Assembly: GCA_965249105.1 (NCBI GenBank)
Contig: OZ252219.1
Coordinates: 3,634,941-3,698,940 of the forward strand
Direction of reading: 5' to 3'
DNA length: 64,000 nt
Source of the DNA: Vicinamibacterales bacterium
Lineage (GTDB): Bacteria; Acidobacteriota; Vicinamibacteria; Vicinamibacterales; UBA8438
Positions 46,256-51,108 of this stretch are shown piece by piece. Within the stretch, counting starts at the first letter, position 1. Every line of letters begins with the position of its first letter. The notes under the pieces were generated by a model, which saw only the letters and a list, made by a program, of their open reading frames with translations, had not been told where the DNA came from and made no database searches. Both the position numbers and the translations under genes were made by a program.

Positions 46256-47347
46256 ATGCTTCGAGCTGGACTGATAGGCCTTCCCTCGACCGGCAAGACC
46301 ACCCTCTTCCAGTTACTGACCCACGGGCACGGGGATGCATCCGCGGGCAAGTCGGGGAAGTTTGGCCGAGCCAACGCGCAGATCGGCGTCTCGCCGGTTC
46401 CGGATCCGAGACTCGACCGCCTTACGGCACTGTTCGAGCCGAAGAAGCATGTGCCGGCGACGGTGACGTTCGCCGATATCGCCGGGTCAGCGGCGGCGCG
46501 TACGATCGTCGACCTGTCTGCGTTTCGGGAGGCCGACGCGTTGCTCCATGTGGTCCGAGCCTTCAATGCCGATGACATCCCCCACGTCTCAGAGACGATC
46601 GACCCCGGGCGCGACGCACGAGCCGTCGAAGACGAGCTGATCCTCGCCGACCTTTCGGTCGCCGAGAAGCGACTCGAACGGATCGAACGCGACCGACGCA
46701 AGGGCGCGAGCAAGGAGCTCGACCGGGAGGCCGAACTGCTGGAGCGATGCCGTGCTCGCCTGGAAGAGGGACTCCCGATTCGGGGCCTCGACCTCGACCC
46801 AACCGCCGCCAAGACGCTGCGTGGTTTTCAGTTCCTCTCGGCCAAACCTCTGCTGCTCGTCATCAACCTGGACGAAGCCAACACCCACGAGGCCGCACGG
46901 GCCGCCGAGTTGGCCAATCTCAGCGACATCCTCGAAGACACCCTCACCCGAGCCGTCGGCGTCTGCGCCAAAATCGAGCTCGAGATTGCCCAACTCGAAT
47001 CCGGTGATGCAGAGGCGTTCATGGCCGACCTGGGGCTCGATGCTCCAGGACTGGACCGCGTGATCAACGCGGCCTACGACCTGCTGGGCTACATCTCCTT
47101 CTTTACAGTTGGCGAGGACGAGTGTCGGGCGTGGTCGATTCCCAGGGGAACGAAGGCCCAACAGGCTGCCGGAGAGATCCACACCGACATCGAGCGGGGC
47201 TTCATTCGGGCCGAGGTCGTAGGATGCGAGCCCCTGCTGCAGCGAGGCTCGATCGCCGCCTGTCGGGACAAGGGTGAGGTGCGACTCGAAGGCAAGGAAT
47301 ACGGGGTGAAGGACGGGGACGTCATCAATTTCCGGTTTGCGACGTAG
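46256..47347 (+). CDS. ychF: Obg-family ATPase YchF
   Basis: GLIGLPSTGKTT, VPDPRLD, DIAG, FFTVGEDECRAW, IHTDIERGFIRAE, EGKEY..DGDV. Confidence 0.92.
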   Translation: MLRAGLIGLPSTGKTTLFQLLTHGHGDASAGKSGKFGRANAQIGVSPVPDPRLDRLTALFEPKKHVPATVTFADIAGSAAARTIVDLSAFREADALLHVVRAFNADDIPHVSETIDPGRDARAVEDELILADLSVAEKRLERIERDRRKGASKELDREAELLERCRARLEEGLPIRGLDLDPTAAKTLRGFQFLSAKPLLLVINLDEANTHEAARAAELANLSDILEDTLTRAVGVCAKIELEIAQLESGDAEAFMADLGLDAPGLDRVINAAYDLLGYISFFTVGEDECRAWSIPRGTKAQQAAGEIHTDIERGFIRAEVVGCEPLLQRGSIAACRDKGEVRLEGKEYGVKDGDVINFRFAT

Positions 47348-47352
47348 GACCC

Positions 47353-47358
47353 TATAAT
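47353..47358 (+). promoter_or_regulatory. -10 box TATAAT, probable leaderless start
   Basis: Perfect TATAAT 6 nt before ATG 47365, no SD. Confidence 0.6.
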
Positions 47359-47364
47359 TCCCCT

Positions 47365-48072
47365 ATGGACACCGGTATGCGGGCGGTGGTGATTGCCATG
47401 ATGACGTGGGTTGTCGCCGTGGCTCCGATCGACGCCGCGGACGGTGTGGACGTGTCATTTGCAGATGGTCGAGTCACCGTCATCGCCGACCAGGTTCCAC
47501 TCCACACGATCCTCGACGAATGGTCGAAACTGGGTGACACCCAGTTCGTAGATTCCAAAGATGACGGTGATGCTCGAGCCGCCATCGAGCAGCTTGCCCC
47601 ACAGCCGATGCAGATCCATCTGGTTGATGTGCCGGAAGCGGACGCGCTCCGAATTCTGTTGCGCGACGCTGCCGGTTTCATTGCCGCACCAAGAGCCGAG
47701 CAAGTCGCAGGTGCGTCGCGTTTCGGCCGGGTGCTGGTGATGGCCACGAGTCGCACGCCGGCGGGAAGCACCTTGTCCCCGGTTGCGTCCGGGACTCCCA
47801 GTCTGCCGCCGGCCCAGAGGGGCCCGCGGATCGCGGTACCAACCGGCGCGGCAGGTGTTGCCCAGGAAGCGAACGAAGGCGAGGCGATGGAAGCGCTGCG
47901 GCGAATCTTGCCGCAACCGTTTGACCAGCCTCGGACGAGTCAGCGGCCCGCGCAGCAACCCGAGCCTGCCGCCCTTCCGGCGACCGCCCCACGTCCAGGA
48001 ATGCCGGTCTCCTCGACCGATGAGACGGCGCCAGTGTTCCGACCCGTCCGTCCGCAGGCGGGCGATCGGTAG
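47365..48072 (+). CDS. Hypothetical exported protein with Pro-rich tail
   Basis: Signal peptide, globular N-domain, low-complexity C-terminus. Confidence 0.7.
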   Translation: MDTGMRAVVIAMMTWVVAVAPIDAADGVDVSFADGRVTVIADQVPLHTILDEWSKLGDTQFVDSKDDGDARAAIEQLAPQPMQIHLVDVPEADALRILLRDAAGFIAAPRAEQVAGASRFGRVLVMATSRTPAGSTLSPVASGTPSLPPAQRGPRIAVPTGAAGVAQEANEGEAMEALRRILPQPFDQPRTSQRPAQQPEPAALPATAPRPGMPVSSTDETAPVFRPVRPQAGDR

Positions 48073-48103
48073 AGCTGTCTGGCCGCAGGCGGGCGACCGG
48101 TAG
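48052..48103 (+). repeat. 21-bp direct repeat duplicating a gene's 3' end
   Basis: CCGCAGGCGGGCGA(T/C)CGGTAG at 48052-48072 and 48083-48103. Confidence 0.8.
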
Positions 48104-48121
48104 CCCCGCTGACCGCCTCGG

Positions 48122-48880
48122 TCACCCGAGCCTGTGACGGTGTCCTTCAAGCTCCAAGAGCGCCTGCTTGACTTCGACCCCACCAGTAAATCCGCCGAGC
48201 TTGCCGCCGTGCGCCACCACCCGATGACACGGTACGATGATCGGCACCGGGTTGCGACCGAGCGCACCACCCACGGCCCGGCTTGCACCCGGCGAACCAA
48301 TCCGTTTGGCGACGTCACCGTAACTCAGCCGCGACCCAAAGGGAATCCGTCGGGTCGCCCGAAGCACCCGCTCCGTGAATGCCGTTACGCCGCGCAGATC
48401 AATCTGCAGTGAGAACCGTTGTCGGTGCCCCGAGAAGTACGCATCCAGCTCTGCCAGAGCGGTCTCGACAGCGGCTCGATCGCGCCACACCTCGGGTGCC
48501 CGAGTCGCCAGTCGTCGTCGATACGCGTCCTCGCTCGATTCATCGAACGTGACGTCACAGACACCGCGATCCGACACCCCGACGAATACCCGACCGACCG
48601 GCGTTCGCAGCCAGTCGAATCGCACGACCGGGTGCCCGGCTCGCGCGAACGCCACCCGTAAGTCCTCGCGGGCCCTCCTGGCCATAGCCGTTACGCCCTT
48701 GAGCTCGTCGCCATCCGCCGCCTCGCAGGCACTGAGAAAATCCCGGGCACTCGCCCACGCGGCGGAGCACCGGCCGCAGCGCTTCATATGCGCCCTCCCG
48801 GACCGCCCGGGGAAATGCCCCGACGCGAGGTCGCCGGCAAGATACGCATCGAGCTGACGTGTGAACTCTGAGCACGTCAC
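48122..48880 (-). CDS. ogt: ZAS (zf-HC2) anti-sigma domain fused to methylated-DNA--protein-cysteine methyltransferase
   Basis: N-terminal MTC..LDAYLAGDL..HMKRCGRC; C-terminal SYGDVA..ASRAVGGALGRNPVPIIVPCHRVV..LLELEG. Confidence 0.88.
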   Translation of the reverse strand: MTCSEFTRQLDAYLAGDLASGHFPGRSGRAHMKRCGRCSAAWASARDFLSACEAADGDELKGVTAMARRAREDLRVAFARAGHPVVRFDWLRTPVGRVFVGVSDRGVCDVTFDESSEDAYRRRLATRAPEVWRDRAAVETALAELDAYFSGHRQRFSLQIDLRGVTAFTERVLRATRRIPFGSRLSYGDVAKRIGSPGASRAVGGALGRNPVPIIVPCHRVVAHGGKLGGFTGGVEVKQALLELEGHRHRLG

Positions 48881-48881
48881 G

Positions 48882-49391
48882 TCATGCCCCCTCTCCTCCG
48901 GTGTGCCGAAGTTGACGTCTCAACCGACGGACCGCCTGATACACATTGGCGCGAGCTCCGGCCTCACTCCCACCCATCGTGCTGGCAATCTCAGCGTAGG
49001 TACGGCCGAGGAGCTTGCGCTGGACGAACGCCGCCCGCTGACGACGCGGTAGTCGCGAAACGGCTCGACGATACACATCGGGGCGCGCGTACGTGTCGTC
49101 TCGGGTCTCCGAGCGCCGAGGTTCCGGCACATCGACGGTGAGCGGTATTTCCTTGCGTCGGCGTGACGCTCGCCGATCGTTTAGGAATACGTTGGTCGCA
49201 ATCCGATAGAGCCACGCTCGGTGGCTCGACCCCATCCGAAGTCGACGGAACGCCGGAAGCGCTCTGAGGAACGTCTCCTGAAAGAGGTCCTCTGCCTCGG
49301 CGCCGTTGCTCGTGAGACGGCGCAAATAGCGCAACACGTCGAGCTGGTGGGCATCGACCACCTCACCAAACGTCTGGACGGCACGTGTCAT
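48882..49391 (-). CDS. ECF sigma factor
   Basis: Region 2 AEDLFQETFLRA, WLYRIATN; region 4 LPRRQR..TYAEIA; 169 aa. Confidence 0.93.
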   Translation of the reverse strand: MTRAVQTFGEVVDAHQLDVLRYLRRLTSNGAEAEDLFQETFLRALPAFRRLRMGSSHRAWLYRIATNVFLNDRRASRRRKEIPLTVDVPEPRRSETRDDTYARPDVYRRAVSRLPRRQRAAFVQRKLLGRTYAEIASTMGGSEAGARANVYQAVRRLRRQLRHTGGEGA

Positions 49392-49470
49392 CTACGACTA
49401 CTCAAACACCGGCGACGGCCGAATGTGAAATCGGTTGTGGCATCGCCCGTATGCTACGCTGACCGCCAGC

Positions 49471-51108
49471 ATGTCGCCCTCCGAACCCACCGCGCCCGCG
49501 GTGGCTTCATCTGACCCCTCCGATAGCGGATCCACAACCACGAAACTTGCTAAATCAGCCGGTCTGGTCGGCTCCGCTACGCTGACGAGCCGCGTGCTCG
49601 GGCTGGTGCGTGACCAGGTCTTGGCGTTTCTCTTCGGAGCCGGCGACACGATGGACGCCTTCAACGTCGCCTATCGCATCCCCAACTTGATGCGGGACCT
49701 CTTTGCCGAAGGCGCGATGAGCGCCGCGTTCGTCCCGACATTTACCAGACGGTTGACGCTGCTAGGAAAACAAGCGGCATGGCACGTCGGGAACCAGCTC
49801 ATCAATGCGCTGCTGGTGGTCACGGGAGCGTTGGTGATGCTGGGCATTGTCTTTACGGAGCCACTCACGCTGCTGTTGGCAGAGAGCTATGCGGAGGTTC
49901 CCGGCAAACTCGAGCTCACGGTCACCCTGACTCGAATCATGCTGCCGTTCCTCACTTTGGTCGCACTCGCCGCCGCCGTGATGGGAATGCTCAACTCGCT
50001 CAATCGGTTCTTCACCCCGGCGCTCTCTCCTGCCATGTTCAACGTGGGGGTGATCGCCAGCGCACTCCTGCTGGTCCCCGCGATGCCTCGCGTCGGTCTG
50101 GAGCCGATTCTGGGCATTGCCATGGGCGTCGTCATCGGGGGTGTTGGGCAGATCGTGTTGCAGCTGCCCGTGCTCTACAAGGAAGGCTATCGATACAAAC
50201 CGTTACTGAATCCCTTCGACCCTGGCCTGCAGGAGATCCTCCGATTGATCGGACCGGGAACGTTGGCGGGCGCCGCCGTGCAGATCAACCTCCTGGTCAA
50301 CATGGTGCTGGCCACCGGCGAAGGCACGGGTGCCGTCTCCTGGCTTAGCTACGCCTTCCGTGTGATGTATCTGCCGATTGGAATCTTCGGGGTGTCGATC
50401 GCCACGGCCACACTCCCCGAAGTCTCGCGTCACGCCGCTCAGGCAGAGATAGGGAGCATCCGGAAGACCGTCTCTAGCGCGCTTCGGATGACGCTGATCC
50501 TGAACGTCCCCGCTCTGGTGGGACTAATCGTCCTGGCCTCCCCGATCGTCGGATTGATCTTCGAGCGCGGGAGCTTCCTGCCATCTGACACCCCTCAGAC
50601 GGCAGCCGCACTCATATTCTACGCACCGGGTCTCCTGGGATACGCCGCCGTGCGGATCGCCGTCCCCTGCTTCTATGCCCTACAAAACAGCGTCACGCCG
50701 ACTCTCGTCAGCGTCTTTTCGGTCGCGCTGAACATCGTGCTCAACCTGATCCTCGTACGACTTATGGGCTTCCGCGGTCTCGCGCTCGGGACATCCATCG
50801 CTGCCCTCGTGAACGGCGGCATCCTGCTGGTATTGCTCAGAGGTCGACTCGACGGTCTGGATACCGCCCGGGTCTTCCGCACCTTCGTCAAGATCACGGT
50901 GGCCGCCGGCCTCATGGGCGTCGCGGTCTGGGCGGCGCATGGCTGGCTCGTCGATGTCGTATCTGGAACGGGCCTCTTCGCCCGCCTACTCCAAGTGTTT
51001 GGCAGCATCGGATGCGGCCTCCTGGTGCTCGTGGTGGGCGCCCGCCTCCTGCGCATCGACGAGCTCGAGCAAGCGAGACGACAGATACTCGGCCGGCTCG
51101 GCTCATAA
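49471..51108 (+). CDS. murJ: Lipid II flippase MurJ
   Basis: SRVLGLVRD, AYRIPNLMRDLFAEGAMSAAFVP, FERGSF, GLALGTS. Confidence 0.96.
   Translation: MSPSEPTAPAVASSDPSDSGSTTTKLAKSAGLVGSATLTSRVLGLVRDQVLAFLFGAGDTMDAFNVAYRIPNLMRDLFAEGAMSAAFVPTFTRRLTLLGKQAAWHVGNQLINALLVVTGALVMLGIVFTEPLTLLLAESYAEVPGKLELTVTLTRIMLPFLTLVALAAAVMGMLNSLNRFFTPALSPAMFNVGVIASALLLVPAMPRVGLEPILGIAMGVVIGGVGQIVLQLPVLYKEGYRYKPLLNPFDPGLQEILRLIGPGTLAGAAVQINLLVNMVLATGEGTGAVSWLSYAFRVMYLPIGIFGVSIATATLPEVSRHAAQAEIGSIRKTVSSALRMTLILNVPALVGLIVLASPIVGLIFERGSFLPSDTPQTAAALIFYAPGLLGYAAVRIAVPCFYALQNSVTPTLVSVFSVALNIVLNLILVRLMGFRGLALGTSIAALVNGGILLVLLRGRLDGLDTARVFRTFVKITVAAGLMGVAVWAAHGWLVDVVSGTGLFARLLQVFGSIGCGLLVLVVGARLLRIDELEQARRQILGRLGS

Follow-up and report, generated by a model that had tools for sequence, protein, structure and literature searches.

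We analyzed a stretch of 64,000 nucleotides from a genome of the order Vicinamibacterales, referred to here as the window. Two minus-strand genes sit between the gene of a 235-aa hypothetical protein and the divergent murJ gene. The first encodes an ECF sigma factor, and the second a soluble protein in which a zinc anti-sigma-type domain is fused to a complete O6-alkylguanine-DNA alkyltransferase (AGT). The first-pass annotation had described a 169-aa ECF sigma gene that ends 1 nt before a 252-aa protein with a GTG start, and the open reading frames at 48882-49391 and 48122-48880 confirm this. The features of the locus are the following.

48882-49391, minus strand: ECF (group 4) sigma factor, 169 aa, ATG start (open reading frame, Pfam, NCBIfam, trees)
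48122-48880, minus strand: 252-aa soluble fusion of a zinc anti-sigma-type domain and a complete AGT, GTG start
48629-48880, minus strand: N-terminal part of the fusion, residues 1-84, with four predicted helices (alignment, model, profile)
48767-48790, minus strand: HxxxCxxC motif of the fusion, H31-C38, kept in 103/120 best homologues
48143-48628, minus strand: AGT domains of the fusion, residues 85-246 (Pfam, alignment, Foldseek)
48221-48232, minus strand: PCHR acceptor-cysteine motif (C218), kept in 120/120 best homologues
48877-48885, minus strand: coupling junction of sigma and fusion genes (sequence; junctions of relatives)
49400-49430, minus strand: predicted promoter of the sigma gene, -35 TTTCACA at 49430-49424 and -10 GGTGTTTGA at 49410-49402

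At the junction, the stop codon of the sigma gene overlaps a two-codon mini-ORF (ATG ACG TGA), and the fusion's GTG start in turn overlaps the stop of this mini-ORF. Two tandem copies of the 5-nt unit TGACG (48877-48886) stand here in place of the plain ATGA overlap, which is the form of most sigma-AGT junctions among relatives. The repeat is real, because a contig from another study, which matches 48236-49314 with 10 substitutions, crosses the junction without gaps. A further contig from a DNA run matches 47300-49504 with 0 differences and may come from the source sample. Coverage by these two DNA contigs shows that the locus did not arise from misassembly. In two metatranscriptome runs, the matches were limited to short contig pieces from near relatives (229 nt of sigma and two 151-nt AGT pieces), which are no evidence for transcription or induction.

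The surroundings in the window are chromosomal housekeeping genes, comprising a cell-division cluster, ychF, murJ, and ATP synthase genes. The 235-aa protein (47365-48072, plus strand) is predicted to be secreted, is encoded convergently with the fusion, and is syntenic in many relatives; it has no match in Pfam or NCBIfam. On the other side, TATGCTACGCTG (49450-49463, plus strand) lies about 20 nt upstream of the murJ ATG at 49472 and is conserved in relatives even after loss of the sigma gene. It is likely the -10 element of the divergent murJ; a sigma-70 scan of 47900-49600 returned no site and did not flag TATGCTACGCTG either. For murJ itself, the start at 49472 is more likely than the listed TTG at 49435.

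Domain composition of the two proteins

The sigma factor matches Sigma70_r2 (E = 1.3e-16, residues 12-79) and r4_2 (E = 3.9e-12, residues 107-157) in Pfam and scores 77.5 bits on TIGR02937 (cut-off 42.9). It has regions 2 and 4 only and no region 3, which places it among the ECF (group 4) sigma factors.

From residue 91 onward, the fusion is a complete Ogt-type alkyltransferase according to Pfam and NCBIfam. It matches Methyltransf_1N (PF02870, E = 8.6e-7) and DNA_binding_1 (PF01035, E = 2.4e-32) and lies above the cut-off of TIGR00589, and a Foldseek comparison of the AGT part with Mtb OGT gave E = 7.9e-16. The acceptor motif reads NPVPIIVPCHR (C218). Y187, R201, N210, P217-R220 (with C218, H219, and R220), K238, and E245 are invariant in all 59 rows of a family alignment, whose rows were picked as full-length; we take the catalytic roles of these residues to be those of human AGT. 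With an RNase-H-like domain, an HTH domain, and PCHR, the protein is of the Ogt/MGMT type and is predicted to carry out methyl transfer. The earlier reading of a complete Ogt domain with an intact PCHR cysteine is thus upheld by Pfam, by TIGR00589, and by the best homologues. The combination that defines Ada, Ada_Zn_binding with an AraC HTH, is absent from the fusion by Pfam, and on the Ada equivalog the fusion scores 101 bits (cut-off 345).

The N-terminus of the fusion contains C3 and H31MKRC35GRC38. C3, H31, C35, and C38 follow the pattern Cys/His-x(~23-30)-HxxxCxxC that marks the N-terminal domain of zinc anti-sigma (ZAS) factors encoded beside an ECF gene. Helices are predicted in this domain at residues 3-14, 26-34, 36-55, and 58-80, and an AlphaFold model of the fusion (pLDDT 92.8) places four N-terminal helices before a normal AGT fold. 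On Pfam zf-HC2, the window protein stays below the cut-off (E = 0.14, 12.7 bits vs 22.2), so that, of the suggested zf-HC2 + DNA_binding_1 architecture, only the second part is matched outright. In the family, 22 of the 59 aligned members match zf-HC2 at E<=0.05 (best 7.8e-6), and 7 of 20 distant relatives are above its cut-off. A profile of the N-terminal domain built from 17 loci (A3) had anti-sigma chains as its best three PDB sequences, namely RsiW (5wuq_C, E = 6.6e-4), DdvA (8rlz, E = 2.2e-3), and 3hug_B (E = 3.8e-3), the last of which we take to be RslA, the partner of M. tuberculosis SigL. Because of these family matches and profile hits, we regard the Cys...HxxxCxxC domain of the window protein as a zinc anti-sigma-type domain, as the first-pass annotation had proposed.

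In a structure comparison with the N-terminal model, RsiW (Z 4.3, rmsd 3.5, 56 aligned) and 8z6g_A, an anti-sigma-sized chain from the AlgU-MucA complex (Z 4.1, rmsd 3.9, 53 aligned), scored level with unrelated helical proteins. A wide structural search with this domain gave no Z > 4.4 and Foldseek gave no match; a small helical domain is an uninformative query for both.

Conservation of the fusion and its pairing with one sigma clade

Among the best 120 homologues, PCHR is kept in every one, HxxxCxxC in 103, and all four zinc ligands in 102. One of the 17 that lack HxxxCxxC is the window protein read from a later start, and the others are shorter, some of them internally deleted. In the full-length rows, C3, H31, C35, and C38 are invariant (59/59), and residues of helix 1 and helix 4 are conserved across sequences that are about 50% identical. 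When the homologues were clustered at 50%, HxxxCxxC and PCHR occurred together in 34 of the best 150 representatives; the other representatives have zinc-less helical extensions, an Ada_Zn-like tail, or an N-terminal sigma domain. No Cys-less alkyltransferase-like version was found among the 120 close homologues or the 34 zinc-motif representatives.

Some relatives join the parts in a single chain. P0273 and P0310 consist of a degenerate sigma-like N-terminus, a helical linker, and an AGT, with the zinc motif present in P0273; the similar P0315 has no Pfam sigma match. In P0305 and P0338, a zinc-motif AGT is followed by an Ada_Zn-like tail just below the Pfam cut-off. Three other candidates for natural sigma-AGT fusions (P0017, L118, and L115) were rejected as products of deletions or frameshifts, their sigma region 4 being missing or garbled. 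C-terminal Ada_Zn-like tails on an AGT, with or without the zinc motif, were seen at L029:594-1574 and L020:3028-3870 and in P0305, P0327, and P0338. An AGT followed by such a tail is the reverse of the domain order of Ada.

All five Acidobacteria loci with a full fusion have an orthologous sigma gene directly upstream. The host order belongs to the Acidobacteriota: the locus labelled 'Acidobacteria bacterium' (L005) is also that of G157, a genome of the window's own order. We searched 401 genomes of the order with a sigma profile; this sample includes one unpublished genome, G596, which is used in denominators only. The 13 best hits (2 of them partial, the other 11 at E<1e-65) all have a zinc-motif AGT at +1, and none of the 17 next-ranked ECF loci that were fetched has an AGT within 1.5 kb.

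We constructed a tree of 45 sigma factors, comprising 20 AGT-linked sequences and 25 others hand-picked from a 112-row quick tree, from which broken and duplicate loci had been left out. All 20 AGT-linked sigma factors were found on one branch (support 97/99). Each has an AGT-like gene at +1, although the one at L027 is cut by the contig end before the active site. The partner carries the zinc motif in 12 cases and a zinc-less extension in L027; in the other 7, the AGT is preceded by a short helix alone. Loci from Arthrobacter, Tsukamurella, and Rhodococcus belong to the short-helix group, and the actinobacterial operons of this group further include another ogt, genes of alkB type, tag, or an Ada metal-binding gene. 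The alignment of the Arthrobacter partner with the window protein starts in predicted helix 4, at residue 66. Since a zinc site is entirely missing from seven members of the clade, the pairing does not depend on the zinc domain. Five matches in a plasmid collection were fetched, and three of them (L021-L023) were set aside as unrelated ECFs without an AGT.

Predicted promoter and regulon

The upstream regions of the clade share the motif (T/A)CAC(A/G)-N16/17-GT(T/C)..A. It was present in 19 of 23 clade upstream regions and in 1 of 86 other ECF loci, a count that is partly circular because the pattern was read from the same regions. We built a promoter matrix on 13 sites, all at other loci and one of them in the same genus, leaving out the window's own site. 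The matrix ranked the window site at 49430-49400 first among 12,219,210 positions of the genome, with a score of 28.1 against 21.8 for the next. The predicted -10 element, GGTGTTTGA, lies about 10 nt before the ATG of the sigma gene. A possible autoregulated promoter had been placed at about 49403-49430, and this position is confirmed by the matrix, whose ranking of the site goes beyond chance.

No second clear target was seen in the matrix scan of the window's genome, where all remaining scores are 21.8 or lower and, judged from flanking sequence, these sites resemble coding regions or repeats. The predicted regulon in this genome may thus be the two-gene operon only. Six near-identical repeats (G000:C1 near 422482, 1295917, 1369638, 2802249, 2903501, and 3001958) match the matrix weakly (13.6) and look like a dispersed repeat or the end of a mobile element.

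The genome, which is 98% complete, has no match to Ada_Zn_binding (PF02805), AlkA_N, or the AlkB family. Since there is neither another clear target nor one of these matches, the system resembles an AGT resupply loop rather than a broad response. The first-pass annotation had suggested an Ada-independent alkylation response. Independence from Ada agrees with the missing PF02805 match, and autoregulation is supported; a multi-gene response like that of Ada is not, as the predicted regulon is confined to the operon. A mutual exclusion with Ada was considered and dropped: PF02805 occurs in 0/13 sigma-bearing genomes and in 4/23 of the rest (Fisher p = 0.27), and these genomes are related to one another. 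The only other DNA_binding_1 protein of the genome is a 100-aa single-domain protein with PCHR kept (G000:C1:5540070-5540306, minus strand), and short open frames with such matches occur in many relatives.

The regulon also bears on a redox reading, in which the zinc domain would be an RsrA-type thiol or redox sensor and the AGT a passenger co-induced under electrophile or oxidative stress. Soluble zinc anti-sigma factors are described as often being redox sensors (PMC7406223), which speaks for this reading. Against it, no thioredoxin-type target sites were found in the matrix scan of the window's genome, and some clade members have lost the zinc ligands yet keep the AGT. Moreover, the RsrA redox signature consists of two acidic residues preceding the first Cys (PMC3177212). 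Both signature positions are acidic in only 2 of 103 homologues, and the window protein has K33 and R34 before the first Cys of the HCC motif and S39 and A40 after it. We therefore consider a redox sensor very unlikely.

Loss and retention among orthologues

An AGT orthologue was found in 30 of the 401 genomes; 28 of these keep murJ upstream, and two adjoin ychF. Zinc domain and sigma gene occur together in 13 of the 30, with the sigma intact in 9 and broken by a frameshift, an in-frame stop, or a deletion in G592, G559, G457, and G373. The sigma genes of L003 and L028 are likewise broken, and some of the breaks may be assembly errors. The zinc domain is absent from 16 orthologues, 15 of them without a trace of sigma and one, G622, with a 40-aa sigma remnant and the promoter. 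The remaining orthologue, G612 (L178), is an intact zinc-motif AGT with only a trace of sigma. An intact sigma without the zinc domain was seen in none of the 30. Of the 15 loci without a sigma trace, 14 have also lost the promoter motif.

At G622 (L181), a deletion has joined the promoter and 40 sigma residues to an AGT without zinc ligands. G612 and G622, both of the window's genus, thus show this locus at two different points of its decay. Internal deletion of the domain with the old start kept was observed in G652, G627, P0044, P0093, and P0119.

In a tree of the AGT core from 29 of the 30 orthologues (the frameshifted G373 was left out), both traits need 8 changes (sigma 6-8 over bootstraps), 2 of which are forced by well-supported branches. 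An independent-pairs test on co-loss gave p = 0.5. The co-loss is not statistically independent, and a single deletion could take the adjacent sigma gene and zinc domain together. Co-retention among the 30 orthologues is suggestive of a zinc domain that serves the sigma factor, and we take the losses as evidence for a dispensable regulator alongside a retained enzyme.

The same losses can be read to mean that the N-terminal domain is structural or vestigial and that the sigma factor drives the AGT constitutively or under other control. The sigma is often decayed and the domain lost with the AGT retained, the domain occurs without a sigma in G612, and the description of the related group ECF122 in PMC7826278 names no anti-sigma. 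We consider a vestigial domain quite unlikely, however, because the four zinc ligands are invariant and helix 1 and helix 4 residues are kept at about 50% identity, and because 0 of 30 orthologues combine an intact sigma with a missing domain. An autoregulated sigma factor without an inhibitor would also be expected to run away.

A proposed model of sigma release by self-alkylation

We propose, in line with the first-pass annotation, that the zinc domain of the fusion silences the sigma factor and that methylation of C218 during repair frees it to transcribe the operon again, which we hold to be reasonably likely as a whole. The N-terminal domain would bind the sigma factor mainly by placing helix 4 against sigma region 2, much as helix 4 of class I anti-sigma domains is described as contacting sigma2 (PMC7406223). 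By analogy with these domains, such binding is very probable. Methyl transfer to C218 would then make the fusion unstable, and the sigma factor would come free through unfolding, domain opening, or proteolysis. According to two AGT reviews (PMC10779285, PMC5751216), alkylation destabilises AGTs and disrupts the contacts between their two domains, and alkylated AGT is degraded in humans, mice, yeast, and archaea, the reach of this in other organisms not being established. Given sigma binding, release after self-alkylation is, by comparison with these AGTs, quite likely. Helix 4 would join the anti-sigma-type domain to the AGT's N-terminal domain, and release of sigma by spent enzyme would be the simplest model. 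The freed sigma factor would rebuild sigma and fusion until unspent fusion is in excess. Output in the window's genome would be limited to resupply of enzyme and sigma, so that spent enzyme is counted in a negative-feedback loop.

An anti-sigma that carries an alkylation signal could also be triggered elsewhere than at C218, by binding of the lesion or of DNA through the AGT part or by direct alkylation of the zinc thiolates, a chemistry like that of Ada-N. The reviews describe the switch of Ada as methylation of a zinc-bound cysteine and report that DNA binding alone shifts AGT conformation reversibly (PMC10779285, PMC5751216), and an Ada_Zn-like domain has been added in some of the relatives. 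Such a trigger is nevertheless unlikely, since PCHR is kept in 120/120 close homologues and 34/34 zinc-motif representatives with no Cys-less version among them, and zinc-less clade members show the same pairing and -35 motif.

Self-alkylation at C218 may have a wider reach. For the multi-phylum ECF clade that includes ECF122, we lean slightly towards a scheme in which a suicide AGT is the anti-sigma and one inhibitor is lost per repair, so that lesions are counted. The zinc domain, the zinc-less domain, and the single helix would be graded versions of one brake, and the actinobacterial ECF122 partners, by analogy, likely function similarly, the last helix being all that they retain of the domain. 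The natural single chains, both sigma-AGT and zinc-AGT-Ada_Zn-like, point to one circuit.

Comparison with known systems

The first-pass annotation had left it to be checked whether this architecture is already catalogued. The pairing of an ECF with an MGMT gene is catalogued, as ECF122 and ECF203, with ECF122 described without an anti-sigma; no paper on an anti-sigma-AGT fusion or its mechanism was found in a literature search at the level of titles and abstract openings. The word 'sigma' is absent from the main text of the AGT reviews PMC10779285 and PMC5751216, and 'methyl' and 'ECF122' are absent from the anti-sigma co-evolution paper PMC7406223. The fusion family is real and conserved; the pairing of sigma and AGT is known, and the zinc anti-sigma-type fusion on it appears to be new.

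ECF122 is described as 100% actinobacterial, with MGMT at +1, no putative anti-sigma, and the promoter CTCAC/CGTCTAC (Casas-Pastor et al. 2021, PMC7826278). It is listed under 'unknown mechanism', with its methyltransferases possibly involved in regulation (PMC8999054), and the model would offer a concrete mechanism for it. ECF122 and the window locus share the MGMT gene at +1 and a similar -35 element (CTCAC and TTCAC, respectively). Three actinobacterial ECF122-like loci (L019, L024, and L025, assigned by the published description) fall into one clade with the window sigma (97/99), and L025 carries CTCAC-N17-CGTCTAC exactly. However, the window sigma is in a separate subclade at 36% identity, and its host belongs to the Acidobacteriota rather than the Actinobacteria. 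The +1 protein has a full zinc anti-sigma-type domain where no anti-sigma is described for ECF122, and the -10 element is GGTGTTTGA in the window and GTT(G/A)TA or GTTTGA in its group, in place of CGTCTAC. Because host, -10 element, and anti-sigma differ, we do not place the locus in ECF122, and the assignment of the sigma factor goes as far as a relative of that group.

ECF203 is likewise an ECF with MGMT at +1, for which a nearby Ada zinc domain is described and TetR control proposed (PMC7826278); neither TetR nor an Ada zinc domain is present at the window locus. The only ECF203-like locus fetched (L020, assigned by description) lies outside the window's sigma clade.

SigW-RsiW of B. subtilis (5wuq), DdvA (8rlz), the SigL partner of M. 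tuberculosis (3hug), and SigR-RsrA of S. coelicolor all have a Cys...HxxxCxxC four-helix domain directly after the ECF gene, as predicted here. In the window, this domain precedes a suicide enzyme and not a membrane helix, a CHAT/cupin domain, or a redox switch, and unlike RsrA the fusion lacks the acidic signature. Sigma factors are released by regulated proteolysis, redox, or partner switching; if the model is true, covalent, catalytic self-alkylation would add a novel mode of anti-sigma inactivation and would provide a ready-made genetic reporter for O6-alkylating agents.

As in E. coli Ada, the signal to transcription would come from a repair protein that alkylates itself. In Ada, methylation of a zinc-bound cysteine is described as yielding a DNA-binding activator (PMC10779285, PMC5751216), whereas here an inhibitor would be lost after methylation of the acceptor cysteine, acting through a sigma factor. 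If true, this would constitute a second, Ada-independent logic of inducible alkylation repair for bacteria without Ada.
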